Shown: positions 6,950 to 33,369, counted from the stretch's first letter. The stretch is DNA of 64,000 nucleotides from an uncultured bacterium (GCA_965541615.1 CBEUCJ010000001.1:195754-259753); one strand, 5' to 3'. Numbers and translations are program-made. Notes: generated from the letters alone by a model not told the origin.

Positions 6950-8233
6950 ATGGAGAAAAAAATTGTTATTTTAGGAGGAGGATTAGCAGGAGTATCTTTA
7001 GCCTATTTTTTAAAAAATAAAAATTTTCTTTTATTTGAAAAAGAAAAAGAATTAGGAGGTTTGTGTAGGACAAAAAGAAAAAATAATTTTTTATTTGATT
7101 TTTGTGGTCATGTTTTACATTTTAAACATAAAGAAATATTTTATCTAATAAGAAAACTTTTGGGTAAAGATTTATTAAGACATAAAAGAAATTCTGTAGT
7201 ATACTGTTTTAAAAGATTTATTCCTTATCCTTTTCAAGTGAATCTTTATAATCTACCTTTTAAAATTACAAAAGGATGCTTTAGTGATTTTGTAAAAATT
7301 TATTTTGATGGGAAAAAAGAGCCTTCTAATTTTTTAGAATGGTGTTATAAAAATTTTGGAAAAAGCATTACTGATCATTTTATGAGACCTTATAATGAAA
7401 AATTCTGGACTTATCCTTTAGAAAAGTTAAACTGGGAATGGGCAGAAAAAGTAATAATCGTTCCTACACTAAATCAACTTTTAGAAGGTACACTTAAAGA
7501 AAATAAAAAAAACTTAGGATACAATTCTTTTTTCTGGTATCCTAAAAAAGGAGGTATAGATAATCTTATAAAAGCTTTTTTGTTGCATATTGATTCTAAG
7601 AAGATATTTAAAGAATGTGAAGTTGTAAAAATAGACCCTATTTTAAAAAGAGTAGAGTTTAAAAATGGGCTTAAAGAAAAATATGATGTATTGATTTCTA
7701 CTTTACCTTTACCAGACTTACCTAAGATTTTAAACTTTCCAAGTTTTATTTTAAAATTTTTTAAAAAATTGAAATGGATTTCTATTTTTAATCTTAATTT
7801 AGGAGTAAAAGAAAAGTCTAAACAATGGCATTGGATATATTTTCCTGAAAAAGAATTTAGTTTCTATAGAGTAGGTTTTTTTAACAATTTTTTTCAAAAT
7901 TCATTTAATACTTCTCTGTATACAGAGGTTTCCTATTCTCAAAATAAGCCTATAGATAAAAGAAAAATAGTTGGAAAGATAATCAAAGATTTGCTAAAAA
8001 TAGGAATAATTGAAAAAAAAGAAAATATAAAAGAAATCGTTATTAATGATATAAAATATGCTTATCCTGTTTATGATTTGGACTGGAAAGAAGCTCGAGA
8101 AAAAATTTTAAATTATCTTGAAAAGTACAGGATTTTTTGTATAGGGCGATTCGGAAACTGGAAATATATGTCCATGGAGGATGTAATATTAGAAAGTTTG
8201 AAATTTTCAAAATTTATAAATGAGAATTTTTGA
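6950..8233 (+). CDS. glf: FAD-dependent UDP-galactopyranose mutase (Glf) family enzyme
   Basis: N-terminal Rossmann KIVILGGGLAGVSLAYFL...EKEKELGGLCRT. The internal YNEKFW and FWYPKKGGIDNLI segments and the C-terminal IFCIGRFGNWKYMSMEDVILESL each parallel the corresponding Glf regions (YTEKQW, GGY, GRLAEYKYYDMHQVI). Confidence 0.5.
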   Translation: MEKKIVILGGGLAGVSLAYFLKNKNFLLFEKEKELGGLCRTKRKNNFLFDFCGHVLHFKHKEIFYLIRKLLGKDLLRHKRNSVVYCFKRFIPYPFQVNLYNLPFKITKGCFSDFVKIYFDGKKEPSNFLEWCYKNFGKSITDHFMRPYNEKFWTYPLEKLNWEWAEKVIIVPTLNQLLEGTLKENKKNLGYNSFFWYPKKGGIDNLIKAFLLHIDSKKIFKECEVVKIDPILKRVEFKNGLKEKYDVLISTLPLPDLPKILNFPSFILKFFKKLKWISIFNLNLGVKEKSKQWHWIYFPEKEFSFYRVGFFNNFFQNSFNTSLYTEVSYSQNKPIDKRKIVGKIIKDLLKIGIIEKKENIKEIVINDIKYAYPVYDLDWKEAREKILNYLEKYRIFCIGRFGNWKYMSMEDVILESLKFSKFINENF

Positions 8234-9002
8234 AAGATTTAAAAAGATTTATTTTTACCGTAATATTCTAAAAGAACTGACACTAAAGAATTTAAAAATA
8301 AAGTATTCTGGTTCTATGTTAGGTATATGGTGGGCAATAATTACTCCTTTAATTTTGGCAATAAGTATTAATTTTGTTTTTAATGTTGTTTTTAATATCG
8401 GTATCAAAAACTTTACTCTTTTTGCTCTTTCTGGAATCTTACCTTGGATATTTTTCTCTAATGCGTTATTCGAAACTACAAATTCTTTTGTAATTAATTC
8501 TCAAATTTTAAAACAGGCAATTTTTCCTCATGAGTTTATTCCTCTTTCTTCTATTTTAAGTAATTTCCTTAATTTTCTTATTGGATTTTTTGCTTTGCTA
8601 CCTTTATTTATTGTTTTCAATCATAAAATATTATTAATCTCCCCTTTTTTATTTTTAATATTACTTCTTCATCTTCTTTTTTTGATTGGTTTAGGATTTT
8701 TACTCTCTGTTTTAAATGTTTTTTTGCGTGATGTATCTTGTTTTTTATCTATAGTATTAATGATTTGGTTTTGGGTTACTCCAATATTTTATCCCATTGA
8801 TTTTTTAAAATTTCCTTACCGTTTAGTATGTATTTTAAATCCTTTAACTTATTACATAATTTCCTATCAGAAAATTCTTTTTAAAGGAGAATCTCTTTCT
8901 TTTTCAGAGATATTTATAATGCTATTTATTTCTTTACTTTTCTTTATTGGAGGTTATTCTTTTTTTATTAAAAAAGAAAAACTTTTGTTAAAAAGAATAT
9001 GA
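8220..9002 (+). CDS. wzm: ABC-2 type polysaccharide export permease (Wzm/TagG family)
   Basis: ILKELTLKNLKIKYSGSMLGIWWAIITPL is the ABC-2 permease signature; six or more hydrophobic helices; translationally coupled to the downstream ATPase. Confidence 0.65.
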   Translation: MRIFERFKKIYFYRNILKELTLKNLKIKYSGSMLGIWWAIITPLILAISINFVFNVVFNIGIKNFTLFALSGILPWIFFSNALFETTNSFVINSQILKQAIFPHEFIPLSSILSNFLNFLIGFFALLPLFIVFNHKILLISPFLFLILLLHLLFLIGLGFLLSVLNVFLRDVSCFLSIVLMIWFWVTPIFYPIDFLKFPYRLVCILNPLTYYIISYQKILFKGESLSFSEIFIMLFISLLFFIGGYSFFIKKEKLLLKRI

Positions 9003-12000
9003 TTGTGGTAGAACTCAAAAATGTTTGGGAAAAATATAGTATAAAATTTGTCTCTGAAAAGAAAATTTGGCGAGAAGAAATTTGGGCATTAAAAGACATT
9101 AATCTTAAAGTTAAGAAAGGAGAAGTTTTAGGAATAATTGGAGCTAATGGAGCAGGAAAGACTACTCTTTTAAAACTCATCGCTGGAATGCTTATTCCTG
9201 ATAGAGGTGAGGTTATTGTAAAAGGAAAAGTAGCTACAATTATGGAATTGGGAGCAGGTTTTAATCCTGAATTTACAGGCAAAGAGAATATAATTCTTAA
9301 TGCTCACACTTATGGATTAGATGAAAATAGTTTAAATGAAAGATTAGAAAAAATTATAGAATTTTCTGGGTTAGGAAAATTTATTTACGCTCCTATAAAG
9401 TATTACTCTCAGGGTATGTTTTTAAGGTTAGCTTTCTCATTAGCTATTCATGCTGAACCAGATATTCTTCTTATAGATGATATTTTAGCTGTGGGGGACA
9501 AAGAAGCTCAAGAAAAATGTATTAATAAAATATTTGAATTAAAAAAGGAAAGAAAGACTATTATTTTGGTAAGTCATGATATGGAAATGATAAGCAGATT
9601 ATGTGATAGAGCAATTTTTTTAGAGAAAGGTAAGATCATTTATGAAGGAGTACCTCAAAAAGCAGTTTTTAAATATCTAGAAACTGTAGGAAATAAAGAA
9701 GGTATTGGTGTTTTGGAAGAGAATGATTTAAGGATCGTTTTTAACAATGGAAGAATCAATATAAGCTGGAGAGATTTTCCTATTACAAAAAGAAACAGCT
9801 GTATTTTTTATTTTGATTCTTTAGTTAATAGCCAGATTTCTTTTTTAAATCTTTTTTGGAGAGTAAAAAAAATAGATTCTAATAAGATTTTAGCTGAAGG
9901 TAGAGATCATAAAGATTTTCTTTTACAAATTTGGAATATCCAATTACAAGATAATTGTTTACATTTAGAAATAGAAATACTCAGTTCAACTGGAGAATCT
10001 CATTTAGGTCTTTCACTTTTTTCTGAATACAAAAAGTGGATAACTTTGAATGAAGAAAAAGAGTTTCCTCCTTTTATTTCTAAAACAGAATATCAAGATT
10101 TAGGTTTAAAAATCTCTCCTGAAGGAATAATAGGTATTAAATCAAAAAATATTCAAGATTTTCCTTATCTTATTTTTGAAAGAAAAGATAATAGTGACCA
10201 GATTAAGCTTTTTAATACAGGTTATAAAGAAGAAGCTCGCATTGTTCAGTTGCCTTTAAATAATAATAAACTTATTGTAGATATCAAAGTATTTTCTGAA
10301 GAAAATGACTTCGAAAAATATATTAAAGATAAAAAAGATAAATTGAAATCTAAACTCCTCTCTCAAAGAACTCTAACCTCAAAAAACTTAAAAGTATATG
10401 CAGACACAGAAAAAAAAGCAGTAAGGATTTATTACAAAGATTTAGAGATCACTAAAGCATTTGGTTTGCACACTTCTTTTTTAATAGATAACAATTGGTA
10501 TGGAAATTCAGAAGCTGAGTGGCAAGTAGAAAAGAAAAACTCTATGCTTATTTTGCAATTTAGTTGGAAAAAGTTGAGAATTAATCAGAGATGGAAACTC
10601 ACTCTTAAAGAAAATTCTATTTTCTGGCAAATAGAATCTGAAATAAAAAATTTGCCCAACCTTAAATTATTCAAATTCGGTATATTTTTATCTGAAAAAT
10701 ACAATACTTTTTTCTCTGGAGCTCAACAAGAGAATTTTCCTGAAGAATTTAATTCATGGCGGGATATGGAATTAAATGATTTCCAAGCTGGATTGATAGG
10801 AGTAAGAAAAAGAGAAAACTATCCTGCTATTGTTCTAGAAAATAAAAATAAACTTCAGGCTTTTATCCAAAATAGTAATAACAATTTAAGCTCCCGTGTT
10901 TTACAGTTAGGCACTTTTCTATCTCCTAATCAAAAAAAATTTTCTTTTTCTACACAACTTAAATTTTTAGAAGAAGAGAATCTTATTGAAGACTATATTA
11001 AAGAAGAACAGCAAAAACTCCTCTCTCAAAGAACTCTAACCTCAAAAAACTTAAAAGTATATGCAGACACAGAAAAAAAAGCAGTAAGGATTTATTATAA
11101 AGATTTAGAAATTACGAAAAACAGAGGGTTATATACAGCGATATGTTTAAAAAATAAAAGATGGATTCATTCTTTTGACTGTTCTTGGCAGATAGAAAAA
11201 AAATCTGAAGAATTGATCTTAATTGTAAAATATAAAAAAATTCTTTCAGAAGTTTGGCGTTTAAGTTGCCAAAATAATATTTTAGAAATTAAAATTGAGC
11301 TAAATCCAATGGCGCCCTTTGTTTTGCTTAATAGAGATTTGAGATTAGAGATATCTGATGAGTATGAAAAATGGATTACTGCTTATGAGGGAGGAGATTT
11401 TTTAAATCAACATTATGGCGGTATAATTCCTGTAAGACTAAAAGATAATAAGGTTTCTAAAATAATGCTGAAAACAAATGATGAGATTTCAGCTCCAACT
11501 TTGTATTTTGAGACTTTATGTCCACATTATGGACAAATTTTGGGAATATATAAAAACAAAAAAGATAAATATATTTGTCTTAATTTTTCTTCTATGATTT
11601 CAAAAAAAGAAAATCGATTTTATCCTGAAAAATATATTTGTTTTTTATCTAAAATTATTTTTAATGAGAATATTGAATTAAAAGAGACTGAATTTGAAGA
11701 AAAAGTTGAGATAAGTAAAGATAATTTAAGGTTTATTTTTGATAGGGGGAAAAGTCAAATATTTTGGAAAGAAGAAAAAATAACCCAAGCTTTAGGAGTT
11801 TATACATCTTTACGTTCTTCTGGTATATGGTATGATTCTTATCAAGCAAAGTGGGAGATAATTAAAAAAGAAAAAGATAGGTTGATTTTACGTGGTGATT
11901 GGATATACCTTCCTATTTCACAGATTTGGAATATAGAACTGAGAGAAAAAAATTTAATATACTGGAAAGTAGATATAGAAGTTCATGAAGAAATTGATTT

Positions 12001-12346
12001 AGAGATAGAGCAAGCAGGTATTATGCTTTCTTTAAAATATGAAAATTGGAAAATACCCAGATTAATCCAAAATAAATTTCTTGATGAATTCCCACAAGAT
12101 TATGATATCTTGCCTTTTAGGTTTTGGTATGGAAAATCAAATAAAATAGAAGTTTTTAGTGAAAAAAAAGATTTTCCAAAATTATTGTTTGAATGTAAAT
12201 CTGAAGAAGAATCTTTTAGAGCTGTAGTAGAAAATAGTGATTATTTTTACAAAGCAAGATTAATTCAATATCAAAGATCAAATATCCAAAAAAGATTTCC
12301 AGGTAAATATTCTTATTTTGAAGGAGTAATTAAAATTGAAAGTTAA
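8999..12346 (+). CDS. wzt: polysaccharide ABC exporter ATP-binding protein (Wzt/TagH family) with ~850-aa C-terminal extension made of at least 4 tandem copies of a ~200-aa repeated domain
   Basis: Walker A GIIGANGAGKTTLL; signature YSQGMFLRLAF; Walker B ILLIDDILAVGD (DD, not the usual DE). The extension carries repeats of the type xVRIxxxxxxIxWxxxEITKxxGLxT...W...S...W.I.KK....LIL...W..L..SQIWN..L.E.N.I.W.VDIE. Confidence 0.7.
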   Translation: MIVVELKNVWEKYSIKFVSEKKIWREEIWALKDINLKVKKGEVLGIIGANGAGKTTLLKLIAGMLIPDRGEVIVKGKVATIMELGAGFNPEFTGKENIILNAHTYGLDENSLNERLEKIIEFSGLGKFIYAPIKYYSQGMFLRLAFSLAIHAEPDILLIDDILAVGDKEAQEKCINKIFELKKERKTIILVSHDMEMISRLCDRAIFLEKGKIIYEGVPQKAVFKYLETVGNKEGIGVLEENDLRIVFNNGRINISWRDFPITKRNSCIFYFDSLVNSQISFLNLFWRVKKIDSNKILAEGRDHKDFLLQIWNIQLQDNCLHLEIEILSSTGESHLGLSLFSEYKKWITLNEEKEFPPFISKTEYQDLGLKISPEGIIGIKSKNIQDFPYLIFERKDNSDQIKLFNTGYKEEARIVQLPLNNNKLIVDIKVFSEENDFEKYIKDKKDKLKSKLLSQRTLTSKNLKVYADTEKKAVRIYYKDLEITKAFGLHTSFLIDNNWYGNSEAEWQVEKKNSMLILQFSWKKLRINQRWKLTLKENSIFWQIESEIKNLPNLKLFKFGIFLSEKYNTFFSGAQQENFPEEFNSWRDMELNDFQAGLIGVRKRENYPAIVLENKNKLQAFIQNSNNNLSSRVLQLGTFLSPNQKKFSFSTQLKFLEEENLIEDYIKEEQQKLLSQRTLTSKNLKVYADTEKKAVRIYYKDLEITKNRGLYTAICLKNKRWIHSFDCSWQIEKKSEELILIVKYKKILSEVWRLSCQNNILEIKIELNPMAPFVLLNRDLRLEISDEYEKWITAYEGGDFLNQHYGGIIPVRLKDNKVSKIMLKTNDEISAPTLYFETLCPHYGQILGIYKNKKDKYICLNFSSMISKKENRFYPEKYICFLSKIIFNENIELKETEFEEKVEISKDNLRFIFDRGKSQIFWKEEKITQALGVYTSLRSSGIWYDSYQAKWEIIKKEKDRLILRGDWIYLPISQIWNIELREKNLIYWKVDIEVHEEIDLEIEQAGIMLSLKYENWKIPRLIQNKFLDEFPQDYDILPFRFWYGKSNKIEVFSEKKDFPKLLFECKSEEESFRAVVENSDYFYKARLIQYQRSNIQKRFPGKYSYFEGVIKIES
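10352..10447 (+). repeat. near-identical ~96-nt direct repeat, copy 1 (inside the wzt extension)
   Basis: aaactcctctctcaaagaactctaacctcaaaaaacttaaaagtatatgcagacacagaaaaaaaagcagtaaggatttatta... recurs at 11018..11113 with only a few mismatches near the 3' end. It encodes KLLSQRTLTSKNLKVYADTEKKAVRIYYKDLEITK twice. Confidence 0.85.
11018..11113 (+). repeat. near-identical ~96-nt direct repeat, copy 2
   Basis: See copy 1. This marks a recent internal duplication of one domain repeat in wzt. Confidence 0.85.
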
Positions 12347-14543
12347 TGAGATTATTAAAGGCAGAGTAAGAATAATTTTTACTCAAAAAGGTGTAAGTAT
12401 TTTCTGGAATAATATTGAGATTACAAAAAATGTCGGCCTAAATGTAGCAATTAATACTGCAGGTTTATGGACAGATTCTTCAAAGGCAGATTGGAAGATA
12501 ATAGAAAAAAAAGGAGATAGTGTTGTTTTGAAAATAATATTTAAAGAGTTACCTCTTTCTCAAATTTGGAATTTAAAGTTCTTTACAGAGAAAGAAATAG
12601 ATTGGCAGATAGATACACAGATAGAGGAATGGATCTTTATAGATGAAGTAAGAATTTTATGCTTACTCCAACCTTATTATAAAAGTTGGATATGTGATTA
12701 TAAAGAAGGAGATTTTGTTAAATTGAGCAGAAATTGGCATGATCTATACATTAGTTCATCTTCATCTTCTTTGGTAGGAGCAAGATTTTGTGTTCAAGAA
12801 AAGTTTTTACCTTCTTTTACAATGGAATCTTTGGATAAAGAATTCTTCTCATTTGTCCAAGTATCTCCCCAGATAATAGGTGCATATGTTATTGGATTTA
12901 GAAGTAAAGATATGAAAGAGTTTTTACCAGGGTATCATCATACTTTTTCAGGAAAACTTAGTCTATTTGAAGAAGAGAAAATTTTGGATGAAAAATTAGA
13001 AATACCCCGCAGTTTAAAAATGGAAAAAGATTTAAGAAAAAAAGGATTTAAAAAGGAAAAGTTAAAAGTTTTACTTTTAAATCTTCCTTGGCAAAGAGAA
13101 GGAAAATGGGGAGTAAGAGCAGGTTCTCGCTGGCCACATATTAAAGATGATTCTGAAGGGAATTATTTACCTTTCCCCTTTTTTTTAGCTTATGCAACGA
13201 GTCTTTTAAAAAAACATAATATCGATGCACATATAATCGATGCCATTGCAGAAAAAATAAATTTTGAGGAACTTTTAAAAAGAATTATAAAAGAAGATTA
13301 CAACATTTTTGTAATTGAGACTTCTGTTCCTTCTTTCTATGATGATTTAAAAATGGCAGAAAAACTTTCTTCTTTAGGAAAGATTATTCTTTGTGGACCA
13401 AATGTGTTAATTTACAGTGAAGAATTTTTAAAGAATACTCCTTTTGTTGATTATGTTATTTATGGAGAATATGAATTTACACTTTTAAATTTAATAAAAG
13501 CATTAAAAGAAAAAAAAGATTTAAGAAAAATTAAAGGGATCATCTTCAGAGAAAATTCAGATATAATAAAAACTCCACCTCAAGAATTGATAGATATAAA
13601 CTTACTTCCTTGGCCAGAAAGAGAAGAACTCCCTATTTATAACTATTGGGATATGCCAGGAAATATTCCCTATCCTTCAGTTCAGATGCTTTCTTCACGA
13701 GGATGTGTTTTTTCTTGTAATTTCTGTCTTTGGCCTCAAGTTTTGTTTATGAAAAAATACAGAGCAAGAGATATAAAAGATGTTGTAGATGAAATGCAAT
13801 ATGTAGTAGAAAAATTTGGGTTTAAATCTATTTATTTTGATGACGATACTTTCAATATAGGAAAAGAGAGAGTTTTGAATTTATGTAAAGAAATTATAAA
13901 AAGAGGATTAAATAAAATTCCTTGGGCAATAATGGCAAAACCAGATTTGATGGATGAGGAATTATTAGATAACTTAAAAAAAGCAGGTTTATTCTCTATA
14001 AAATATGGAGTGGAAAATGCTGATCAAGAGATTGTAAATAGATGCGGTAAAAATCTTAATTTAAAAAAAGCAGAAAAAATGATTAAATACACAAAATCTT
14101 TAGGAATAAAAATTCATCTTACTTTTAGCTTTGGACTCGAAGGTGAGACAAAGGAAACTATAAAAAGAACCATTGATTATGCACTAGAACTTGATCCAGA
14201 TTCAGTTCAATTCTCTATAATTACTCCTTTCCCTGGAACAAAACTTTATGAGGATTTAGAGAGAGAAGGAAGAATTTTAACAAAGAATTGGTCTCTTTAT
14301 GATGGGCATTACAGTTGTGTATTTAAACCTAAAAACTTATCACCAAAGGATTTAGAAGAAGCAAAACAATATGCTTACCGAGTATGGAAAGATTTTCAAA
14401 GAAAGAAAAGAGGATTTATTGGAGATTTGAAAAGATTTTTAAATTACGCAAAAGAAAGAGGATTAAGTTATGCTTTTTATAAAAGTTTTGACTATTTTAA
14501 ATATCTCCTGTTTTACAGAAAAAAGTTTCTAGGAAAAATATAA
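12336..14543 (+). CDS. B12-binding (class B) radical SAM enzyme with an N-terminal Wzt-extension-type repeat domain
   Basis: N-terminus RVRIIFTQKGVSIFWNNIEITKNVGLNVAI...LPLSQIWNLKF matches the wzt C-terminal repeats. B12-binding segment KVLLLNLPWQREGKWG...NIFVIETSVPSF. rSAM core SSRGCVFSCNFCLWPQ (CxxxCxxC) followed by IYFDDDTF. TTG start 11 nt inside the wzt 3' end. Confidence 0.65.
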   Translation: MKVNEIIKGRVRIIFTQKGVSIFWNNIEITKNVGLNVAINTAGLWTDSSKADWKIIEKKGDSVVLKIIFKELPLSQIWNLKFFTEKEIDWQIDTQIEEWIFIDEVRILCLLQPYYKSWICDYKEGDFVKLSRNWHDLYISSSSSSLVGARFCVQEKFLPSFTMESLDKEFFSFVQVSPQIIGAYVIGFRSKDMKEFLPGYHHTFSGKLSLFEEEKILDEKLEIPRSLKMEKDLRKKGFKKEKLKVLLLNLPWQREGKWGVRAGSRWPHIKDDSEGNYLPFPFFLAYATSLLKKHNIDAHIIDAIAEKINFEELLKRIIKEDYNIFVIETSVPSFYDDLKMAEKLSSLGKIILCGPNVLIYSEEFLKNTPFVDYVIYGEYEFTLLNLIKALKEKKDLRKIKGIIFRENSDIIKTPPQELIDINLLPWPEREELPIYNYWDMPGNIPYPSVQMLSSRGCVFSCNFCLWPQVLFMKKYRARDIKDVVDEMQYVVEKFGFKSIYFDDDTFNIGKERVLNLCKEIIKRGLNKIPWAIMAKPDLMDEELLDNLKKAGLFSIKYGVENADQEIVNRCGKNLNLKKAEKMIKYTKSLGIKIHLTFSFGLEGETKETIKRTIDYALELDPDSVQFSIITPFPGTKLYEDLEREGRILTKNWSLYDGHYSCVFKPKNLSPKDLEEAKQYAYRVWKDFQRKKRGFIGDLKRFLNYAKERGLSYAFYKSFDYFKYLLFYRKKFLGKI

Positions 14544-14554
14544 AAAATGCCTAT

Positions 14555-17500: not shown

Positions 17501-18793
17501 CCCTTTTTTAGATTAATAGGAAATGACCCTTTTACAAAAGAAGCAGGTTGTTATAAAGTTTGTGATGATATTGGAAGAAACATGTGGATGCATTCAAGAA
17601 TAAGTATGTTAACTTATCCTGAAAAATTATTATTAAAAACAGCAGCAGCTGGCATAAAAATTTTAAGAAAAATAAAGCCTAAAAAAGAAGAATATAAAAT
17701 GTATCATAAAGACCCACTTATTGCAGGTATTCTTCATGGAAGAAAAGCATTTAGAGGTCCTAATCAGGTAGTCATTGATATTACAAATAAATGTAATTTA
17801 AATTGTATTGTTTGCTGGCTTTACTCACCTTTTTCAAAAGTGGATAAAGATTGGCTTAATGAAGAGATTTCCAAAGATACACTTTTTAGATTAATAAAAG
17901 ATTTAAAAGATATTCATACAGAACGTATAAGATTTACAGGTGGAGGAGAACCTTTTATGTGCAAGTATTTAATAGAGGCGATTGAATTTGCACGGAAAAA
18001 TGGTTTATTAGTGTCTATTACTACAAATTTTGGGTTAGTTTCAAAAAAAGATATAAAACGTTTAGTCGATTTAGAGGTTGATGAATTATGCATCAGTATT
18101 TGGGCAAAGAACAAAGAAACTTATTTAAAAACTCATCCATCTGTTTCAGAAAAATATTTTGAGAATTTAAAAGAAAATCTTTTATATCTTAAAGAGATTA
18201 AAAGAAAAAAGCCTCGAGTTACATTTGCAAATGTAATAATGAATTTGAATTATAAAGAATTTGATGAAATGTATGAATTTGCAAAAGAATATGGTGCTGA
18301 TGCAATTTATTTTACTCTTCCTGATGTTTTTAGAGATGAAATTAAAAGGTTCTTATTAAGTGATAAAGAGAAAGAATTTTTAATTAGAAAAGCAGAGAAG
18401 ATGAAAATGAAAGCAAAAAAAGACAAAATCGAACTTGAATTTTTTGAAGGGTTTATAAGAAGATTATCTAAAAAAGAAGAATTTACAAAAGGAGAGTATG
18501 ATAAAGATGATATAGATAAAATCCCCTGTTATGTAGGATGGATATTCTCACGCATTTTAGCAGATGGAAATGTGGTTCCTTGTTGTAGAGCTGTTAATAA
18601 AATAATGGGAAATGTAAATAAGACCTCTTTTAAAGATATATGGTATTCTCAAAAATATAATGAATTTAGAGCTAAAGCGAAGTTTTTAAAGAAAACACAC
18701 CCCTTTTTTAAAGACATAGGATGTATAAAAGAATGTGATAATTTTATGCATAATTTAGAAATTCATAGAAAGTTGAATAATGTGTTAATATAA
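14555..18793 (+). CDS. 1412-aa protein with three tandem radical SAM / SPASM(twitch)-type modules
   Basis: Module 1: IDLTDKCNLNCIFCW...GSGEPFM, then IPCYIGWYYARILTNADVIPCCKAY...CIKECDNW. Module 2: IDLTNDCNSNCIACWC...GGGEPFM, then MPCYIGWLFARIIPNGEVHPCLKAH...GCYKVCDD. Module 3: IDITNKCNLNCIVCW...GGGEPFM, then IPCYVGWIFSRILADGNVVPCCRAV...CIKECDNF. A Cys-free ~130-aa beta-rich insert (GKGLIIDGGEKRGHALYSITIKENGRYELW...ILKIVADNC) lies between modules 1 and 2. Confidence 0.7.
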   Translation: MEKILEGIDKEKVLTGPRVVQIDLTDKCNLNCIFCWVHSPLFDKKKIFPEGLKELPFKLVKNLIKELKDLGTEEIILSGSGEPFMYDKILEVIDLIKSYGFYLNIITNGLLINDKIAKFLVEKKVDLLTVSVSAAKPSTYLKLHPPATHDDFLKLKNNLKKISNYKNEIVTIYPHTKIYNVICNKNYREIEEMIDFAKEVDADSVEFQTIDIIENKTEFLALGNKEKEEIFEIFERIRKRKDLIDYEIPKEKKIKDFIKEEFSDFGKIWKNYKENFQLTRYAKELICPKGFNGERKIIFHTYSPYATRVSDFWYKFNFNNNCKECELKRKCFNKKEEVGEVDVKLLNLLNVESFLRKLVNLDNQNFTYRKDIDSIPCYIGWYYARILTNADVIPCCKAYKFALGNLYKKSFSQIWKSEKYNEFRIKAKNLSKKDKYFSLINCIKECDNWGMNMEIHKKFMEYKKEKDIREKSFSLVINADKFFEGNFNKGNHEFGKGLIIDGGEKRGHALYSITIKENGRYELWSKYASYQIRPVKIFIDGNLIKEDGLSKITGGWNKVFSKWFKEGEIYLKEGKHILKIVADNCIPHIEKFAFLKKEGKINLFNIKTSYLEKFKDILKKEGLKKAIYKLFYNLTPSNLKDRYLEILGILDKEYAYKGPFHVQIDLTNDCNSNCIACWCNSPLFKKPRLTPEEKKEYLPFSLVKEVLDELKAMHTTEIYYSGGGEPFMHPNILEILEYTKKKGFITHVNTNFTLVNKDVADKLIDIGVDFLTVSVWAGTPQVYKKVHLRDEEVFFRVKDTLLYLNKRKKQKYNKPLIKIYSVIFNMNYHEIEEIIKFAEDTLSESIEFTLVDTIPGVTDVLRLNDKQYEELIYKFEKIKRKLDKNNRLPSGLLLFQFEQFLRRISQKNNVKEAKYDKNIIDSMPCYIGWLFARIIPNGEVHPCLKAHRIPSGSLYLNRFFEIWNSDKQKYFRKKTLVYEKKDPFFRLIGNDPFTKEAGCYKVCDDIGRNMWMHSRISMLTYPEKLLLKTAAAGIKILRKIKPKKEEYKMYHKDPLIAGILHGRKAFRGPNQVVIDITNKCNLNCIVCWLYSPFSKVDKDWLNEEISKDTLFRLIKDLKDIHTERIRFTGGGEPFMCKYLIEAIEFARKNGLLVSITTNFGLVSKKDIKRLVDLEVDELCISIWAKNKETYLKTHPSVSEKYFENLKENLLYLKEIKRKKPRVTFANVIMNLNYKEFDEMYEFAKEYGADAIYFTLPDVFRDEIKRFLLSDKEKEFLIRKAEKMKMKAKKDKIELEFFEGFIRRLSKKEEFTKGEYDKDDIDKIPCYVGWIFSRILADGNVVPCCRAVNKIMGNVNKTSFKDIWYSQKYNEFRAKAKFLKKTHPFFKDIGCIKECDNFMHNLEIHRKLNNVLI

Positions 18794-18881
18794 ATTAGGA
18801 GATCAGTTTTTGGATGAAAAACTTTATTTTTCTATTTTCAAAGCAAAGTTTTTACTAAAGGCAGAGAGTTTAGAGAATTAA

Positions 18882-19582
18882 ATGAAGTTGGAAATAGTAT
18901 TACCTGTATATAATGAAGAAGAGATTTTAGAAAAAAATGTAATAAGAGTCAAAAATTTTTTTAAGAAGCATAACTTCAAATTTATAATCTCTATTGTAGA
19001 TAATGGATCCACAGATAACACTTATAAAATTGCTAAAAATTTAGCAGATAAAAATGATAATATATTTGCTTTTAAATTGAAAAAAGGGGTAGAGGGAGAG
19101 CATTAAAATTTAGAATATTAAATTCTTCTTGTGCTATTTTGGGGTATATGGATATAGATTTATCTGCAGACCTTTATGATTTTTTGATATTGTATAGAGA
19201 AATTCAAAATGGGTATGATATAGTAATAGGTTCAAGATTGTTACCTGCTTCTTCTGTAAAAAGATCGATTCTCAGAAAATTACTTTCTCGAGTTTATAGC
19301 AAGATGGTAAGGAGAGTTTTGAATTTACCTTTTTTTGATTATCAATGTGGTTTTAAGTTATTTAGAAGAGAGAAAATCGTCTCACTAATGCCATTGATAA
19401 AAAATAATAATTGGTTTTTCGATACTGAGCTCATATTCTATGCATATAGAAAAAATTTAAAAATAAGAGAGATTCCTATAAGGTGGAAAGAAAGAAAATA
19501 TGGAAAGGTAAAGTTATTTCCTACGATTATTGAAGACATTAAAGGAATAATGAGATTGAGATTTAATAAAGAGTATTATTAG
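18882..19582 (+). pseudogene. GT2 glycosyltransferase (DPM1/polyprenol-phosphate-sugar synthase-like) split by a 1-nt frameshift in an A6G4 homopolymer (19080-19089)
   Basis: ORF 18882-19106 gives IVLPVYNEEE...SIVDNGSTDNT...FKLKKGVEGEH*. The next frame continues KRGRGRALKFRILNSSCAILGYMDIDLSAD...VIGSRL (the GT2 R-x-x-G-x-G-x-A-L ... DADL ... GSR motifs) into ORF 19139-19582. The split could be real (pseudogene or phase variation) or a homopolymer sequencing error. Confidence 0.55.
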
Positions 19583-19707
19583 CTAGTGTAGAGCATCATC
19601 AGATATATTATATGTTTCCTTTGATAAGTATAGGTTTAGTTTCAGGGTTAAGAGAAATTCAAAAATTAGTAATATACAAAAGAATAAATAATAATGAGTA
19701 GAAAACT

Positions 19708-20805
19708 TTGAAATACTCCTATTATATTAGAACATTATTAAATTATATAATTTTATATCCAAAACTTATTACTTTAAAATCCATCTATCGACTTTCTCTT
19801 TTATTATTTGGTAAAAATTATATCTCAGAACCTCTTACCATAAATTTTCTTATTACTCACAGATGTAATCTTAAATGCAAAATGTGTAGTTTTTTTGGAA
19901 GAAAGACTTATGAAACTAAAGAAAGAGATATAGAATTTGAGGATGTTAGAAAAATATTAATGAGTAGTAAAAAAATAAAGCCGATTATTTCTTTTGGTGG
20001 TGGAGAGCCATTTTTAAGAGAAGATTTTATTGATATATTAAAATTTGCTAAACATGAATGTAATTTAAAAGTGGTAGTGATTACAAATGGCTCTTTGCTT
20101 ACTGATAAGATAATAAAAACTATTGATAAACTAAACCTAATAGATTATTTTATAATATCTATACATGGTCTTTTTAATTTGCATGATGAAATAGTGGGAC
20201 TAAAGGGAGCTTTTGATAGAGTTGTTTCTAATATAAGAAAATTCTCTAAGAAACTTAAATCGAAGGTGATCGTTTCCTCAGTATTAATGAGAGAGAATAT
20301 ATTCTTTTTTGATGATTTTATAAGATTCTTTTTAAATGAAGGTATAAAAAAAATAAAAATAGAGCATTTGAACTTCCTAACAGAAGAAGAAACTAATCTT
20401 TATCAAAAAGAAAATATTTTTTTACCATTTACATTTATAAGAAAAGATTTATTCGAGAAAGAATTTATTGAAAAAGCTTGGTATACACTCGTTAATCTTA
20501 AAAGAAAATATCGTTCCAAACTCATTATTAAACCACCTCTCTCTCGAAAACAGTTTTATGAATGGTATGAAAAAAAAATTGGGAATAGCAATGAATTTTA
20601 TAGGCTTAGATGTGTTTTTATAAAACATTCTTTATTTATCGATCCACAAGGAGAAGTAATTCCATGCCAATTCCTTCGTAATTGTAAGATAGGAAATACC
20701 AAAAACAATGATCTTCTTAAATTGTGGAATTCTGCAATATATAAAAATATAAGAAAAATAATAAACAAAAGTAATTTTCCTGTTTGTTTTAGATGTTGTA
20801 AATAG
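19708..20805 (+). CDS. radical SAM / SPASM-domain protein
   Basis: INFLITHRCNLKCKMCSFFG (CxxxCxxC); FGGGEPF; C-terminal IDPQGEVIPCQFLRNCKIGN...FPVCFRCCK (SPASM-like Cys cluster). Confidence 0.65.
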   Translation: MKYSYYIRTLLNYIILYPKLITLKSIYRLSLLLFGKNYISEPLTINFLITHRCNLKCKMCSFFGRKTYETKERDIEFEDVRKILMSSKKIKPIISFGGGEPFLREDFIDILKFAKHECNLKVVVITNGSLLTDKIIKTIDKLNLIDYFIISIHGLFNLHDEIVGLKGAFDRVVSNIRKFSKKLKSKVIVSSVLMRENIFFFDDFIRFFLNEGIKKIKIEHLNFLTEEETNLYQKENIFLPFTFIRKDLFEKEFIEKAWYTLVNLKRKYRSKLIIKPPLSRKQFYEWYEKKIGNSNEFYRLRCVFIKHSLFIDPQGEVIPCQFLRNCKIGNTKNNDLLKLWNSAIYKNIRKIINKSNFPVCFRCCK

Positions 20806-20814
20806 TTTTCATTT

Positions 20815-23800
20815 ATGGCAGACTTCCCCAAATACCTTTCTATTCAAACCACATCTTTATGTAATGCTTCTTGTGTATTTTGTCCCTATAAAGATATAAA
20901 AGATTTATTTCCTAAAAAAATTATGGATATGAGACTATTTAAAAAAATAATAAATGAATGTTCAAACTATAAAGTTGAAAGAATAATCCTTTACATGAAT
21001 AATGAGCCTTTAACTGATCCTTACATAATAGAAAGGGTCAACTATGCAAAAGAAAAAGTACCTTGGGCTTGTGTTCATATTTTAACTAATGGTGTATTAC
21101 TTACTGATGAAATGGCAGAAAAAATTTTAAATTCAAAATTAGATTGGATTGGAATAAGTTTTCATGGGATAAGAAAAGAGACGGTTGAGAAAACAATGGG
21201 TATAAATTTTGATATAACATTTGAAAGGATTAATAAATTTATAGAAAAGGCAAAAAAAATAAAGAATATAAAGGAATACATAATGATAACTTTCCTAAAG
21301 CATAAATATTTAACAGATGAAGAAAAAGAAGAAGCGATTAAATACTGGAGAAATAAAGGAATAGAAAGAATTAGTTTTTTTGAAGCTCCTATCTCACGTG
21401 CAGGGAATGTAAAAAGTCTAAATAAGATATATCATAAAGAAAAAATTGTTGGTTGTAAATCTATATGGGCAGAAGAAATGATTCATATTACTGAGGATGG
21501 AAAAGTAATTTTATGTTGTATGGATTGGAGAAGGGAAGTTATTTTAGGAGATTTGAATAAAGAAAGTATATACAGTGTGTGGAATGGAAGAAGAAAAGAA
21601 ATTTGGCAGATGATTAAAGGATATAAAGAGATGCCAGAGGATTTTTTATGTAGAAGATGTGAAGAAGCAATAACAGAAAAAGAAAAAAAATCAGTTTTAC
21701 TTGTGAACTTACCTCCTTGGGGTGTAGATACTCCTTATTTAGGTATTGCTTCTCTTGCTAGTTATCTTAATAAGAACAGAATACCTACTCAAATATTCGA
21801 TTTTAATATAGAGTTGTATAATCTCGTTCCTTCAGAATATAAGTATCTATGGGGTATGAACTATAGTAGTTGGTGGAAAAATAAGTTTAGTTTTATTAAA
21901 GATAAAATAGGTCCTCATATTTATGCTTTAATGGAAAGATTGTTATACTTTCCTCACAAAATAATAGGATTTTCTCTTCCTTCAAATTGGTCATACACAA
22001 TTTTAGAAGAAATAGTAAGAAAAATAAAAGAGAGGGATAAAAATAAAATAATAATATTAGGAGGGATTTCTATATCAATAAAAGAACAAAGATTTGAGAT
22101 TTTAAAACGAATAGAAAAATATATAGATTATTGCATCATTGGTGAAGGAGAAAAGGCTTTGTATGAGATAGTAAAGAACATTTTTGAGAAAAAAGAAGAT
22201 GATATAAAAAAGATTAAAGGAGTATTAACAAAGGATACTTTTTTTAGTGATGGAGAAAAAGCAGAGATAGAATCACTCGATGAATTACCTTTTCCTTCCT
22301 TTGAGGAGTTTGATCTTGAAAAATACACTGCAAAAGGTAGCCTTCCTATAGAATTTTCTCGAGGGTGTATAGGTAATTGTTCATTTTGCGATTTTAAAAT
22401 AATTTCTCCTCGATTTAAGAAAAAGACAGCTTCTTACATTTTTAATCAGATTAAATATTATATAGAAAAGTATGGCATAAACCATCTTACAGTTGTAGAT
22501 CCTGCACTAAATTCAGATATAAAAACTTTAGAAGAATTATGTGATTTGCTAATCAAATACAAGGTTAAAATTAAGTTATCTGGTTTAGCTATTCCCCGAA
22601 AAGAGATGAGTTATGAATTACTCTGTAAGATGAAAAAAGCAGGCTTTTACCGTTTAGAATATGGAGTTGAAAGTGGCTCTGATAAAATTCTTAAGTTAAT
22701 GAGGAAAATGTTTACTTCTGAGATAGCTGAGAAAGTGATTAAAGATACTCATAGAGCAGGAATAGAAGTACATTTATATTTTATAGTAGGTTTTCCTGGA
22801 GAAGGAGAAAAAGAATTTAATGAAACAAAAGAATTTTTAAAAAGAGTAGCTTTATACGTAACAGCAATAAAATCAATTAATCCTCTTTATGTAATGGCAG
22901 GTTCAGAAATATTTTATCATCCAGAGAAATATGGGATTATTATACCTGATAATGAAGGTGATAGAAAATGGTATACAGTGAATTTAGATAACACTTTTGA
23001 TATAAGAAGAGAAAGAGTATTGGAGTTAAAAAGATGGGCAAAAGAACTAAATATAAAATTTTCAGAAGATGCTGAATCTTTGGAATTCACCTTAAAATTT
23101 GCTGAAAAGAAAAAAGAAAATGAAATTATAAGTATAAAAAAGAAAACGTTACCTGAGGAAGTTAAAAAATGTGATTTTCTTTTAATTAATCTTCCTCCTT
23201 GGTCTCAAGAAAATCCTCATATAGGTGTTGGTTATTTATGCAGTTATTTAAGAAAAAAAAGATTCAAACCTAAAGTTTTAGATTTAAATAAAAAATTTTA
23301 TCTTAACCATCAAGATTTTAAAATGCTCTGGCATGTGGAGAATAAAAATTTCTGGTCAAATGAATCTACATTTCCTTTGATTTTGAAAATTTTCAAAGAG
23401 GATATAGATAAAGCAATAGAGGAAGTTATTTCTTACGATTGTGAAGTTTTGGGGTTTTCTGTAGTAGATCCAAAAGAAAAACTTACCATTGAATTTATAA
23501 AAAGAATAAAAGAGAAAGCACCAGACAAAAAAATAATATTGGGAGGTCCTGCCACCTCTACTTATGAGCAGAGAAAGATTTTTTTAGATAATGTGGATAA
23601 AGATATAACTGCTTTTGTTATTGGAGAAGGTGAAGTCGCTCTCTTTTCTTTGTTGAGAAATATTTTAGAAAAGAGGGAGATAGATAACATTGAAGGATGT
23701 ATGGTTAAAAAAGATGGTAAGTGGAAATATAAAGAAAGAAAATTTTTTATTCCTCTTGATGAATTACCTTTTCCTACCTATGAAGAATTTGATATGAGTC

Positions 23801-24810
23801 TATATGGAAGATCTATTTTAGTTGAATGGTCAAGAGGTTGTATTGGAAGATGCGCTTTTTGTAAAAACTACAAACTTTTCCCTGTATTTAGAGTAAGATC
23901 TCCTGAGAATATATTAAAAGAATTAAGATTTCATAAAGAGAAATATAAAATTGAAGAATTCACAGTAGTAGATAATATATTAAATGGAGATTTAAATAAT
24001 TTAAGAAAAGTTTGTGAAAAAATAATAAAGGAAAATTTAAAAATAAGATGGACAGGCCAAATTGCTCCTTCAAAAAATATGGATTTTGAATTTTTTAAAT
24101 TATTAAAAAAAACAGGTTGTTTTAAATTACAAATTGGGTTTGAATCTGCTTCAAATAAGGTATTAAAAAAAATGAGAAAAACTTTTACTCAAGAAATATC
24201 TGAAAAGAATATAAGATATGCAAAGAAAGCAGGAATAGAAACAGAAATTTTTGTAATGGTAGGTTTTCCTGGTGAAGATGAAAAAGAATTTAAAAAGACT
24301 TATAATTTTATAAAAAGAAACTCAAAATATATTGATACTATAAAATCTATAAATACTCTGCATTTAATAGCAGGAACAGATGTATATGAGAAAAGAGAAG
24401 ATTTTGGAATAAAACCTTTACCTAAAGAAAATTGGCATTATTTATGGGAGACTTACGATGGAAATAATTATAAAATAAGAAAAAGAAGAGCAGAAATACT
24501 TTTAGATTTAGCTTACAATTTAGGAATAAAAGTTATGGAGACGAATATAACTGAAGGTAAAGAAAGTATATTTAAAGTTATAAAAGAAAAACCTCTTTGT
24601 GAAAAAATAGAATTGTTAAGGTCTTCCATTAATAATTTACAAGAACTCCCTCAAAAAAGAATAAGGAAGATAAGAAAAAAAAGGAGCTTTTTGAAGTATT
24701 TTATTTTGTTTTCACTTTCTTTTTACATATTTTTTTATATTGTATATTTTTGGATGTATATGATTTTAAAGAAAAAGATTATTTGGGGAGGAAAGTTGAA
24801 TAAGAAATAA
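20815..24810 (+). CDS. 1331-aa membrane-anchored protein with three radical SAM modules (1 twitch/SPASM-like + 2 tandem B12-binding class B modules)
   Basis: Module 1: IQTTSLCNASCVFCPYK...IVGCKSIW...ILCCMDW...FLCRRCEE. Module 2: NLPPWGVDTPYLGIASLASYL (B12-binding) + EFSRGCIGNCSFCDFK. Module 3: NLPPWSQENPHIGVGYLCSYL + EWSRGCIGRCAFCKNYK. Modules 2 and 3 are diverged tandem duplicates (DELPFPSFEEFD / DELPFPTYEEFD). C-terminal hydrophobic helix FILFSLSFYIFFYIVYFWMYMIL. Confidence 0.7.
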   Translation: MADFPKYLSIQTTSLCNASCVFCPYKDIKDLFPKKIMDMRLFKKIINECSNYKVERIILYMNNEPLTDPYIIERVNYAKEKVPWACVHILTNGVLLTDEMAEKILNSKLDWIGISFHGIRKETVEKTMGINFDITFERINKFIEKAKKIKNIKEYIMITFLKHKYLTDEEKEEAIKYWRNKGIERISFFEAPISRAGNVKSLNKIYHKEKIVGCKSIWAEEMIHITEDGKVILCCMDWRREVILGDLNKESIYSVWNGRRKEIWQMIKGYKEMPEDFLCRRCEEAITEKEKKSVLLVNLPPWGVDTPYLGIASLASYLNKNRIPTQIFDFNIELYNLVPSEYKYLWGMNYSSWWKNKFSFIKDKIGPHIYALMERLLYFPHKIIGFSLPSNWSYTILEEIVRKIKERDKNKIIILGGISISIKEQRFEILKRIEKYIDYCIIGEGEKALYEIVKNIFEKKEDDIKKIKGVLTKDTFFSDGEKAEIESLDELPFPSFEEFDLEKYTAKGSLPIEFSRGCIGNCSFCDFKIISPRFKKKTASYIFNQIKYYIEKYGINHLTVVDPALNSDIKTLEELCDLLIKYKVKIKLSGLAIPRKEMSYELLCKMKKAGFYRLEYGVESGSDKILKLMRKMFTSEIAEKVIKDTHRAGIEVHLYFIVGFPGEGEKEFNETKEFLKRVALYVTAIKSINPLYVMAGSEIFYHPEKYGIIIPDNEGDRKWYTVNLDNTFDIRRERVLELKRWAKELNIKFSEDAESLEFTLKFAEKKKENEIISIKKKTLPEEVKKCDFLLINLPPWSQENPHIGVGYLCSYLRKKRFKPKVLDLNKKFYLNHQDFKMLWHVENKNFWSNESTFPLILKIFKEDIDKAIEEVISYDCEVLGFSVVDPKEKLTIEFIKRIKEKAPDKKIILGGPATSTYEQRKIFLDNVDKDITAFVIGEGEVALFSLLRNILEKREIDNIEGCMVKKDGKWKYKERKFFIPLDELPFPTYEEFDMSLYGRSILVEWSRGCIGRCAFCKNYKLFPVFRVRSPENILKELRFHKEKYKIEEFTVVDNILNGDLNNLRKVCEKIIKENLKIRWTGQIAPSKNMDFEFFKLLKKTGCFKLQIGFESASNKVLKKMRKTFTQEISEKNIRYAKKAGIETEIFVMVGFPGEDEKEFKKTYNFIKRNSKYIDTIKSINTLHLIAGTDVYEKREDFGIKPLPKENWHYLWETYDGNNYKIRKRRAEILLDLAYNLGIKVMETNITEGKESIFKVIKEKPLCEKIELLRSSINNLQELPQKRIRKIRKKRSFLKYFILFSLSFYIFFYIVYFWMYMILKKKIIWGGKLNKK

Positions 24811-27727: not shown

Positions 27728-28170
27728 AAAGAGCTAACTATAAGTTACTGGGAGAGATTTTAGTAGAAGAGGGATTTATTAAAAAAGAGGATTTAGAAAT
27801 AGCGTTGGAAAGAAAAAAAAGAGAAAAGAAAATGTTAGGAGAAATTCTTTTAGAAATGGGTAGCTTAAAAGAAGAGGAGTTAGTTCAAGTTTTAAGTCTT
27901 CAATTTGGTTCTTCTTATTTACCTTTGGATAATTATGAGATAGATTTTCAAATAGTAAAAAGAATCCCTCAGGATATAATAGAAAAATATAAGATAATTC
28001 CTATCGATATTATTGGGAATATTTTAACGATAGTTACATTCGATCCTTCAAATTTAGAGTTAGAAGAATTGGAGAACGTATTAGGGTTTGATATACAGGT
28101 TTTTATATGTACAAAAAGTGAATTTGAGAGGGCTTTAAAGAAAATTAAACAGAATGTTTCTTCAGGATAA
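27724..28170 (+). CDS. stand-alone T2SSE_N (GspE N-terminal) domain protein with tandem MshEN-like c-di-GMP-binding motifs
   Basis: KLLGEILVEEGFIKKEDLEIALERKK + KMLGEILLEMGSLKEEELVQVLSLQ match the paired 24-residue MshEN motif. This is followed by the T2SSE_N fold (IIPIDIIGNILTIVTFDPSN). Confidence 0.5.
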   Translation: MKRANYKLLGEILVEEGFIKKEDLEIALERKKREKKMLGEILLEMGSLKEEELVQVLSLQFGSSYLPLDNYEIDFQIVKRIPQDIIEKYKIIPIDIIGNILTIVTFDPSNLELEELENVLGFDIQVFICTKSEFERALKKIKQNVSSG

Positions 28171-29851: not shown

Positions 29852-29855
29852 TTTT

Positions 29856-31544: not shown

Positions 31545-31551
31545 TTTTTAG

Positions 31552-32757: not shown

Positions 32758-32760
32758 AGC

Positions 32761-32789
32761 TTGACACCCTAAATTTTGAATAGTAAACT
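32761..32789 (+). promoter_or_regulatory. sigma70-like promoter for the pilin gene (-35 TTGACA, 17-nt spacer, -10 TAAACT), with a strong SD AGGAGGTG at 32841-32848
   Basis: ttgacaccctaaattttgaatagtaaact read directly; the SD lies 9 nt before the ATG at 32858. Confidence 0.45.
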
Positions 32790-32857
32790 TTAAAAGTAGA
32801 TTTAAAAATAGAAAATAAAGTTTTAATTTTGTTTAAAGAAAGGAGGTGTTTTAAAAG

Positions 32858-33304: not shown

Positions 33305-33334
33305 TAATTTTTTTGTTTTTATGTTAATTAAAAA

Positions 33335-33364: not shown

Positions 33365-33369
33365 AAAGT

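Follow-up and report, generated by a model that had tools for sequence, protein, structure and literature searches.

The closest described counterparts of the locus presented here are the ATP-binding cassette (ABC) transporter-dependent O-polysaccharide systems of Escherichia coli O9a and O8 and Klebsiella O12, in which the permease Wzm and the ATPase Wzt are encoded side by side. In the O9a type, tailoring of the polymer is coupled to export through WbdD and the carbohydrate-binding domain of Wzt. Sugar-acting members of the radical S-adenosylmethionine (rSAM) superfamily (BtrN, AprD4, DesII and BlsE, as well as GenK and HygY) are known to us only from reactions on small molecules, and we know of no exported cell-surface polysaccharide that is tailored by rSAM enzymes, least of all by a whole suite of them. 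The locus lies in a 64,000-nucleotide (nt) stretch of DNA from an uncultured bacterium (GCA_965541615.1, CBEUCJ010000001.1:195754-259753; hereafter the window, with positions counted from its first nucleotide), where wzm and wzt are followed by four genes (r735, r1412, r365 and r1331) that together encode eight rSAM modules. As in the O-polysaccharide systems, Wzm and Wzt are adjacent and Wzt carries an extension that is predicted to read the glycan. However, this extension consists of four supersandwich repeats of ~220 amino acids (aa), termed domain X, instead of the ~150-aa β-sandwich Wzt_C of canonical Wzt; X is also fused to a tailoring enzyme; and tailoring would be by rSAM enzymes rather than by a kinase/methyltransferase terminator. 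The locus is a real, conserved and uncharacterised version of the ABC-transporter glycan pathway, whose chemistry and final glycan acceptor are predicted here from sequence.

Every one of the eight CxxxCxxC motifs falls inside a PF04055 match above the gathering score, and a GGE-type SAM motif is visible in the module sequences. A first-pass annotation of the window had spread these cores over five consecutive + strand genes; the domain search confirms all eight as rSAM cores but assigns them to four + strand genes (12336-24810), the fifth open reading frame (ORF) being a broken gene for a family 2 glycosyltransferase (GT2). The motif of r735 (12336-14543) is found at aa 457 (PF04055, E 2.6e-21) and that of r365 at aa 53. 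r1412 (14555-18793) has three motifs, which begin at aa 28, 670 and 1080, together with three PF04055 stretches (E 1.9e-55) and three SPASM stretches. The three motifs of r1331 (20815-24810) are found at aa 16, 518 and 1009, and this chain has three PF04055 stretches (E 4.2e-66), one SPASM stretch and two B12-binding stretches (PF02310, 63 bits over the two, above the gathering score), in agreement with the earlier reading of this 1331-aa chain as one SPASM-like and two B12-class modules. The r1412 modules are paralogous (38-50% identical; 41-50% between module 1 and modules 2 or 3), as are the two B12 modules of r1331 (38%). At its C-terminus, r1331 has a transmembrane tail anchor (aa 1292-1315; 24688-24759) that is kept in 24 of 25 orthologues.

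The auxiliary-cluster domains score above the PF13186 gathering threshold, yet they differ from a full SPASM domain, defined by the seven-Cys motif CX9-15GX4C ... CX2CX5CX3C ... C. Four to five Cys are conserved per module (among 13-56 homologues), which suggests a single auxiliary cluster and a twitch-like rather than full SPASM architecture. The SPASM/twitch modules ascribed beforehand to the 1412-aa chain and to r365 are thus recovered by Pfam, but not as full SPASM domains. The conserved Cys of r1412 module 2 are C925, C943, C999 and C1003, and module 1 has an extra four-Cys insertion (C287, C322, C325 and C331). The nearest solved relative of the twitch-type modules is BtrN (E 3e-9, profile), followed by MoaA, BlsE, GDGT-MAS and DesII. 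BtrN is the best match of the auxiliary domain of r1412 module 3 (E 4e-7 with the single sequence, 3e-9 with a profile) and also matches the N-terminal module of r1331 (E 3e-7), where the spacing C214-x19-CC-x43-C-x2-C presumably resembles that of BtrN. Like the modules of the locus, BtrN-type enzymes combine a core with a C-terminal domain holding about four Cys and one auxiliary cluster; HygY and SpeY are further carbohydrate-acting twitch enzymes. However, the BtrN match amounts to 38 bits only, and known twitch enzymes are stand-alone proteins of ~250-300 aa acting on aminoglycoside intermediates, whereas here the module is triplicated in one chain, joined to a carbohydrate-binding module (CBM) and encoded in an export locus. 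Among curated families, the twitch-type modules score 75-117 bits for TIGR04317 (cut-off 380) and 77-80 bits per module for NF033640 (cut-off 170). The whole of r1412 gives 177 bits for the latter, but this is a sum over modules, single modules scoring 80 and 77, and r1412 is not assigned to that family.

The best matches of r735 are B12-domain enzymes that do not methylate, namely HpnJ (TIGR03471, 265 bits), BchE (189 bits) and AprD4, its nearest solved structure (E 2e-25). The scores lie far below the equivalog cut-offs (577.6, 481 and 500, respectively), and the locus contains no hopanoid genes. HpnJ and AprD4 act on amino sugars, and none of the three enzymes has the N-terminal X domain of r735. 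The B12 modules of r1331 are nearest to the C-methyltransferases of TIGR03975 (144 bits, cut-off 282) and to PhpK (124-139 bits, cut-off 600), and match solved structures only weakly. They share the B12 plus rSAM layout of such cobalamin-dependent class B methyltransferases, of which GenK and Fom3 are further examples, but are tandem-duplicated, fused to a twitch module and membrane tail-anchored. None of the modules reaches a curated NCBIfam cut-off. For several of them, the most similar solved structures or curated families are enzymes that act on sugars (BtrN, BlsE, DesII, AprD4 and HpnJ).

More than one rSAM core in a single chain has been described for FbiC, a CofG-CofH fusion (PMC11917521). 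FbiC joins two different steps of one cofactor pathway, whereas the chains of this locus type fuse three, four or six modules, including paralogous repeats, in combinations that differ widely between loci. The literature searched contained no description of the locus, nor of chains with three to six rSAM domains; a 2026 preprint notes in passing that rSAM and sugar-metabolism domains co-occur in long Omnitrophota proteins. The three-module fusion, singled out in the first-pass annotation, is indeed absent from the characterised systems covered by that literature but not rare: rSAM fusion proteins are common in Omnitrophota genomes, where they are annotated only as 'radical SAM protein'.

Wzt is 1115 aa long (8999-12346). 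The best solved relatives of its nucleotide-binding domain (NBD) are 8dku, 7k2t and 6oih ('ABC transporter' chains, E 6e-69, aligned to aa 241 only), which we take to be the O-antigen transporter Wzm-Wzt of Aquifex aeolicus, and its best NCBIfam matches, below cut-offs, are TagH and galactan Wzt. An ABC-2 permease (PF01061) adjoins this ATPase (PF00005) of the Wzt/TagH clade, as expected for a Wzm/Wzt exporter. Beyond aa 245, Wzt has no Pfam match: the canonical Wzt_C domain (PF14524) is absent and four X repeats stand in its place. The first ~240 residues of r735, equally without a Pfam match, are related to all four repeats (BLASTP of aa 1-250, E 4e-22, 1e-21, 1e-10 and 6e-4). Transporter and tailoring enzyme thus share a module of carbohydrate-binding fold, which replaces the canonical Wzt domain. 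The X family is small, a profile of it retrieving only 616 clusters among 1.84 billion representatives. The best 147 members comprise 74 Wzt-type proteins (NBD-X, with one to five X copies), 55 X-only proteins or fragments and 18 fusions to rSAM modules; fusion partners among them are exclusively Wzt NBDs or rSAM modules. The 18 fusions involve B12-type or twitch-type modules, and one of them, 1856 aa long, has the layout NBD-X4-rSAM. Every named member of the family is from Omnitrophota.

The X profile has no match at E ≤ 1 among PDB sequences, and the domain is identified by fold comparison only, as a galactose-mutarotase-like β-supersandwich with aldose 1-epimerases among its best structural matches. 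Sequence identity in the structural alignments of X and the CBM-like module is 5-21%. The residues conserved across X copies and orthologues, among them W53, W78, Y115, W118, F127 and D136, are mainly Trp, Tyr, Phe and Gly with few Glu/Asp, and no His is conserved at ≥90%, which may point to a binding rather than a catalytic role. On the modelled fold, X is taken to be a glycan-recognition domain. A second carbohydrate-binding fold occurs within r1412, in which a CBM-like module adopts the β-jelly-roll of CBM6/CBM35. It has no Pfam match and is 13-18% identical to CBM6/CBM35, so that carbohydrate binding is predicted from the fold. CBM6/35 and mutarotase-like domains of hydrolases belong to secreted proteins, whereas the versions in the locus are cytoplasmic and partnered with rSAM modules or an ABC ATPase.

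Judged by its relatives, the window belongs to Candidatus Omnitrophota. An exact look-up of its 1412-aa protein returned no entry, and a 98%-identical relative was compared instead. More than 85 full-length relatives of r1412 (clusters at 90% identity; 42-98% identical to it) are on record, every named one from Candidatus Omnitrophota; they include variants of ~1300 aa and of ~1920 aa, the latter with an added B12 module. For r735, full-length orthologues number more than 120. When each species was represented by one genome, a scan yielded at least 130 relatives and 80 loci that were kept, labelled mostly as Omnitrophota, generically in ~20 cases ('uncultured Planctomycetia', 'uncultured bacterium') and in a few as Aminicenantes, Desulfatiglandales, Caldisericota or Mariniplasma. 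The most conserved twitch module, r1412 module 2, is 45-72% identical across all 80 loci. Wzm and Wzt are present in 32 of the 44 loci with at least 9 kb upstream, and in 42 of these 44 an r735-type enzyme directly precedes the anchor twitch module. Downstream, the family 4 glycosyltransferase GT4b is found in 40 of the 50 loci with at least 8 kb on that side (44-68% identity in the loci listed, compared with 30-56% for Wzm). Five loci inspected gene by gene (98%, 55%, 46%, 42% and 44% identity) all contain, in this order, Wzm, a long Wzt, a B12-like rSAM, a triple twitch, one or more twitch/B12 rSAMs and two GT4 enzymes, the rSAM genes being fused or split differently in each. Loci hold from 2 to at least 13 modules, and the polypeptides of 77 loci carry one (184), two (51), three (30), four (5) or six modules (1). 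That modules fuse and split so readily speaks for their acting in one pathway. The first-pass annotation had listed a mosaic of unrelated operons among the findings that would refute its reading; the block, syntenic with wzm/wzt across Omnitrophota, is no such mosaic.

The individual loci show how variable the block can be. Modules of the r365 type form arrays of up to 10 genes; in L070 (14838-25077), and also in L067 and L083, the core is followed by ten or more separate tandem rSAM-SPASM genes of ~340 aa, giving 13 or more modules. In L016 (9980-16283), twitch module 1 and the CBM-like domain are duplicated, a 631-aa gene preceding the 1459-aa triple protein, which is another sign of rapid module duplication. 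An r735 orthologue of 1236 aa (P0163) contains intein and LAGLIDADG Pfam domains (PF14528, PF14890), and an intein appears to have inserted into this B12-type rSAM. In L076 (CAXXLN010000004.1, labelled Desulfatiglandales), Wzm/Wzt lack X and one ORF of 2779 aa encodes six rSAM modules (twitch, four B12, twitch), and L048 (CP070825.1, labelled Aminicenantes) has only a B12-rSAM and twitch pair, 62-67% identical to the proteins of the window; for both, horizontal transfer is one possible explanation, and Omnitrophota DNA under a wrong label or in the wrong bin is another. An ORF of ~40 aa ('...IIFLVVAMFSILVEFYHIMLKGLRGWTLFPGG') in eight loci (including L059, L068, L069, L071, L073 and L078) resembles the tail anchor of the terminal B12-rSAM protein. 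It is either a separate ORF or a tail split off by a frameshift, and the motif LLGG / FPGG after its helix is conserved.

The window has ~27% G+C, with nearly all genes on the + strand, and the locus runs in the order GT9, GT4, FAD enzyme, Wzm, Wzt, rSAM genes, GT-C (PMT_2) and GT4 (Table 1). The first-pass annotation had placed the rSAM genes downstream of wzm/wzt and GT9 genes and upstream of GT-C and GT4 genes, and this arrangement stands. Its 'Glf-like' gene, by contrast, encodes a protein of the amine-oxidase family (NCBIfam PRK07208-type, 160 bits, below cut-off), with 56 bits for UDP-galactopyranose mutase against a cut-off of 304, and its 'GT1' is right as the Pfam family Glycos_transf_1 but corresponds to GT4 in CAZy. 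The FAD enzyme gene lies upstream of wzm, often directly, in many loci; homologues of GT4a are usually found downstream of the rSAM block (synteny table); and those of the GT-C protein occur in about eight other loci. The GT9 protein (98 bits for the heptosyltransferase II family, cut-off 135) has a homologue in one other locus only, being part of the operon in the window but not kept elsewhere. Spacing is operon-like in two runs of genes, GT9 to r1412 and r365 to r1331, where each gene either overlaps the one before it or starts 7-12 nt behind it. Wider gaps follow r1412 (915 nt, holding the GT2 remnant), r1331 (219 nt) and GT-C (70 nt). Between 2000 and 21900, a promoter scan gave 99 hits against 111.5 ± 10.9 in shuffles, without excess, and a terminator scan 6 against 4.4 ± 2.0, no better than chance. 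Since these scans are uninformative on operon structure, gene spacing and synteny were used instead. An Rfam scan of the window found two tRNAs only, both far from the locus.

Table 1. Features of the locus, in window coordinates
Feature	Coordinates	Strand	Basis
GT9-family glycosyltransferase	4653..5852	+	Pfam PF01075, E 2e-19
GT4 glycosyltransferase (GT4a)	5849..6943	+	Pfam Glycos_transf_1 + Glyco_transf_4
FAD-dependent amine-oxidase-family protein	6950..8233	+	Pfam PF01593 + PF13450
Wzm, ABC-2 permease	8220..9002	+	Pfam PF01061; weak NCBIfam galactan Wzm/RfbD match
Wzt NBD (aa 1-243)	8999..9727	+	Pfam ABC_tran, PF00005
Four X domains in tandem at the Wzt C-terminus (aa 244-468, 469-690, 691-900, 901-1115)	9728..12346	+	
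r735 X domain (aa 1-235)	12336..13040	+	Fold comparison
r735 catalytic part, B12-binding-like domain and rSAM core (CVFSCNFC at aa 457)	13071..14543	+	
r1412 module 1, rSAM and twitch-like auxiliary domain	14555..15964	+	Pfam
CBM6/CBM35-like β-jelly-roll inside r1412 (aa 474-596)	15974..16342	+	
r1412 module 2, twitch-type rSAM, locus anchor	16475..17674	+	Identity and conserved Cys
r1412 module 3, twitch-type rSAM	17675..18793	+	Pfam
Disrupted GT2 gene, polyprenyl-phosphate glycosyltransferase-like	18882..19582	+	ORFs 18882-19106 and 19139-19582
r365, single rSAM and SPASM/twitch protein	19708..20805	+	PF04055 E 1.1e-22, PF13186 E 6e-11
r1331 N-terminal twitch-type rSAM module	20815..21684	+	Pfam
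r1331 two B12-binding rSAM modules and C-terminal tail anchor	21685..24810	+	PF02310 (2 stretches), PF04055
GT-C fold membrane glycosyltransferase (PMT_2)	25030..26490	+	Pfam PF13231, E 1e-19
GT4 glycosyltransferase (GT4b)	26561..27727	+	Pfam

The GT2 remnant, which is ArnC/PgfS/AglJ-like with scores below cut-offs, adjoins a clean deletion of 1717 bp relative to the 98%-identical contig L001 (window 18794-19707; L001 14240-16840). L001 carries an intact GT2 gene (232 aa) followed by a 610-aa polytopic membrane protein that is missing from the window and has no Pfam or NCBIfam match. The loss and the split gene represent either strain variation or an assembly error, and this strain or assembly may thereby have lost a periplasmic side-branch glycosylation step.

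Taken together, we lean, with somewhat better than even confidence, towards an Omnitrophota-specific, ABC-transporter-dependent glycan pathway in which a lipid-linked polymer is tailored by membrane-tethered rSAM enzymes before export by Wzm/Wzt. GT4 and GT2 enzymes would build the glycan on a polyprenyl carrier at the cytoplasmic face, and the X and CBM domains would dock the rSAM modules on the sugar chain. The twitch modules could then abstract hydrogens from sugar C-H bonds, leaving residues oxidised, epimerised or deoxygenated; BtrN, HygY, AprD4 and DesII carry out such chemistry on small sugars. Unactivated sugar carbons might be C-methylated by the methyltransferase-like B12 modules of r1331, and the HpnJ/AprD4-like r735 might catalyse a rearrangement or dehydration. 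By analogy with the terminus-reading domain of E. coli O9a Wzt, the X repeats of Wzt would read the finished, modified glycan and gate its export, after which GT-C enzymes could complete or transfer it in the periplasm; the product may be an O-antigen, a capsule or a protein glycan. The conserved glycosyltransferases and the two carbohydrate-binding folds favour a sugar as target, and we hold with good confidence the wider view that a carbohydrate is what these rSAM enzymes modify. Synteny, gene spacing and the two folds likewise lend in silico support to the idea, already put forward in the first-pass annotation, of an ABC-exported glycan with several radical modifications. A bolder version, possible but doubtful, is that of a 'radical SAM assembly line': two to more than 13 membrane-tethered modules, guided by CBMs, would rewrite C-H bonds along a polysaccharide still attached to its lipid (the reactions being C-methylation, epimerisation, oxidation, deoxygenation or cross-linking), and the X-bearing transporter would proofread and export the product, amounting to a new class of post-polymerisation glycan chemistry.

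Several points weigh against tailoring of the polymer ahead of export. Gene content, folds, synteny and fusions are observed; the overall substrate, the chemistry and gating by X are predictions, and action on the polymer rather than on a precursor is read from the shared X domain only. YidC, in its periplasmic domain, and a viral capsid protein also have mutarotase-like supersandwiches and, as fold is not function, X could be a protein-protein docking domain, which would be compatible with the same pathway. In 12 of the 44 loci, no Wzm/Wzt is found within 10 kb upstream; in nine of these, however, arrays of X-domain and rSAM genes reach the upstream end of the DNA examined, so the transporter may lie further out. 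The resemblance to sugar-acting rSAM enzymes is slight, with E values of 1e-5 to 1e-9 among the twitch modules, and every curated cut-off is missed, so that a reaction cannot be assigned. In NCBIfam, the r1331 B12 modules come closest to methyltransferases for RiPPs (ribosomally synthesised and post-translationally modified peptides) and phosphonates. r735, earlier read as a B12-binding class B enzyme, retains its rSAM core, but its PF02310 match lies below the gathering score (25.4 against 32.1 bits). AprD4-type relatives have lost cobalamin, and both r735 and r1331 are only putative cobalamin-dependent class B enzymes.

The most serious rival would move the chemistry to an earlier stage: the rSAM modules would make unusual monosaccharides as nucleotide sugars or other small molecules, in the manner of aminoglycoside and deoxysugar biosynthesis, glycosyltransferases would polymerise them, and X and CBM domains would bind a monosaccharide or nucleotide sugar or tether the enzymes near the transporter. 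It owes its weight to the fact that every characterised relative acts on small molecules, including the nearest sugar-acting rSAM enzymes (BtrN, AprD4, DesII and BlsE), and monosaccharides are the ligands of the aldose 1-epimerases, which rank among the best fold matches of X. It nevertheless appears unlikely, as X is repeated one to five times on a transporter ATPase that handles lipid-linked polymer and the usual ligands of CBM6/35 modules are glycan chains or their ends. The conserved tail anchor and up to 13 modules per locus are hard to explain at the precursor level, and in the five inspected loci no nucleotidyltransferase or dehydratase genes are consistently linked. Tailoring of a lipid is a distinctly weaker candidate, in which the rSAM enzymes would modify the head group or tails of a membrane glycolipid, a polyprenyl or another lipid (hopanoid-like or membrane-spanning) for export by the ABC-2 transporter. 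HpnJ, the family nearest to r735, has an amino sugar linked to a hopanoid as its substrate; Tes/GDGT-MAS and a ladderane-type B12 rSAM are matched weakly; the rSAM set has a membrane tail anchor; and homologues of the lipid genes Mss and ElbD have been reported from Omnitrophota metagenome-assembled genomes (PMC11868695). However, the HpnJ score is 265 of 578 bits and that for Tes (~1e-39) is summed over three modules, both far below cut-offs, while the locus keeps several GT4, GT2 and GT-C genes, exporters of O-antigen and teichoic acid are the closest relatives of the Wzt NBD, and two carbohydrate-binding folds are present. The lipid alternative is weakened accordingly, but a short glycolipid head group is compatible with the evidence.

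Very improbable, finally, is a peptide or protein substrate of the RiPP kind, for example a pilin that would be cross-linked or methylated, then glycosylated and exported. SPASM/twitch and class B rSAM enzymes are typical RiPP maturases, the RiPP C-methyltransferases of TIGR03975 are the best NCBIfam match of the r1331 B12 modules, and the genes that follow in the window form a type IV pilus cluster that includes a PMT_2-TPR protein. That cluster, however, is adjacent in no other genome, the transporter is of the Wzm/Wzt type with no peptidase or typical RiPP exporter, and the domains fused to the rSAM modules have carbohydrate-binding folds. Pfam detected no RiPP recognition element (RRE)/PqqD domain in the locus proteins, and the gaps of the window contained only short low-complexity ORFs and no Cys/Ser-rich one. 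Clustering of 204 small ORFs from 75 loci gave one recurrent family (8 loci), which is the detached tail anchor, and no conserved precursor; the RiPP alternative contemplated in the first-pass annotation is weakened as a result.

Other genes of the window stand apart from the locus. Two tandem HemN-like rSAM genes had been pointed out at the left edge; they exist, but on the minus strand (491-2173, 560 aa, CRRICKFC; 1-~490, cut by the edge, CKKICPYC), fall well short of all HemN/HemW/HutW cut-offs and do not recur beside the locus in other genomes. The type IV pilus cluster (27724-39092) comprises a stand-alone MshEN-domain protein, two PilB paralogues, PilC and a pilin (32858-33304), followed by a PMT_2 and TPR membrane protein (33370-35421), which could be a pilin glycosyltransferase, and by PilM, PilN and a secretin. 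A link between the system and this cluster, GT9 or the HemN-like genes was rejected, none of them being adjacent to the locus in other genomes; GT9 and the HemN-like genes are doubtful members. Further downstream (39180-46408), genes for an AMP-binding (acyl-adenylate-forming) enzyme, an MMPL/RND-type transporter and LolA-like, DUF1302 outer-membrane and omptin-like proteins form a cluster that looks like a lipid or lipoprotein export set.

If export of an rSAM-tailored polymer is confirmed, it would represent a new type of glycan modification and predict unprecedented sugars in a widespread uncultured phylum. Similarly, X would provide Wzt with a second, structurally unrelated way of reading its cargo. 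The fused rSAM modules, one to six per chain, constitute a natural library for placing several radical centres in one polypeptide, and domain X offers an annotation handle for proteins now listed as 'radical SAM protein' or 'hypothetical protein'. For the organisms themselves, such a glycan, if real, may underlie the surface and host-attachment biology of ultrasmall Omnitrophota.

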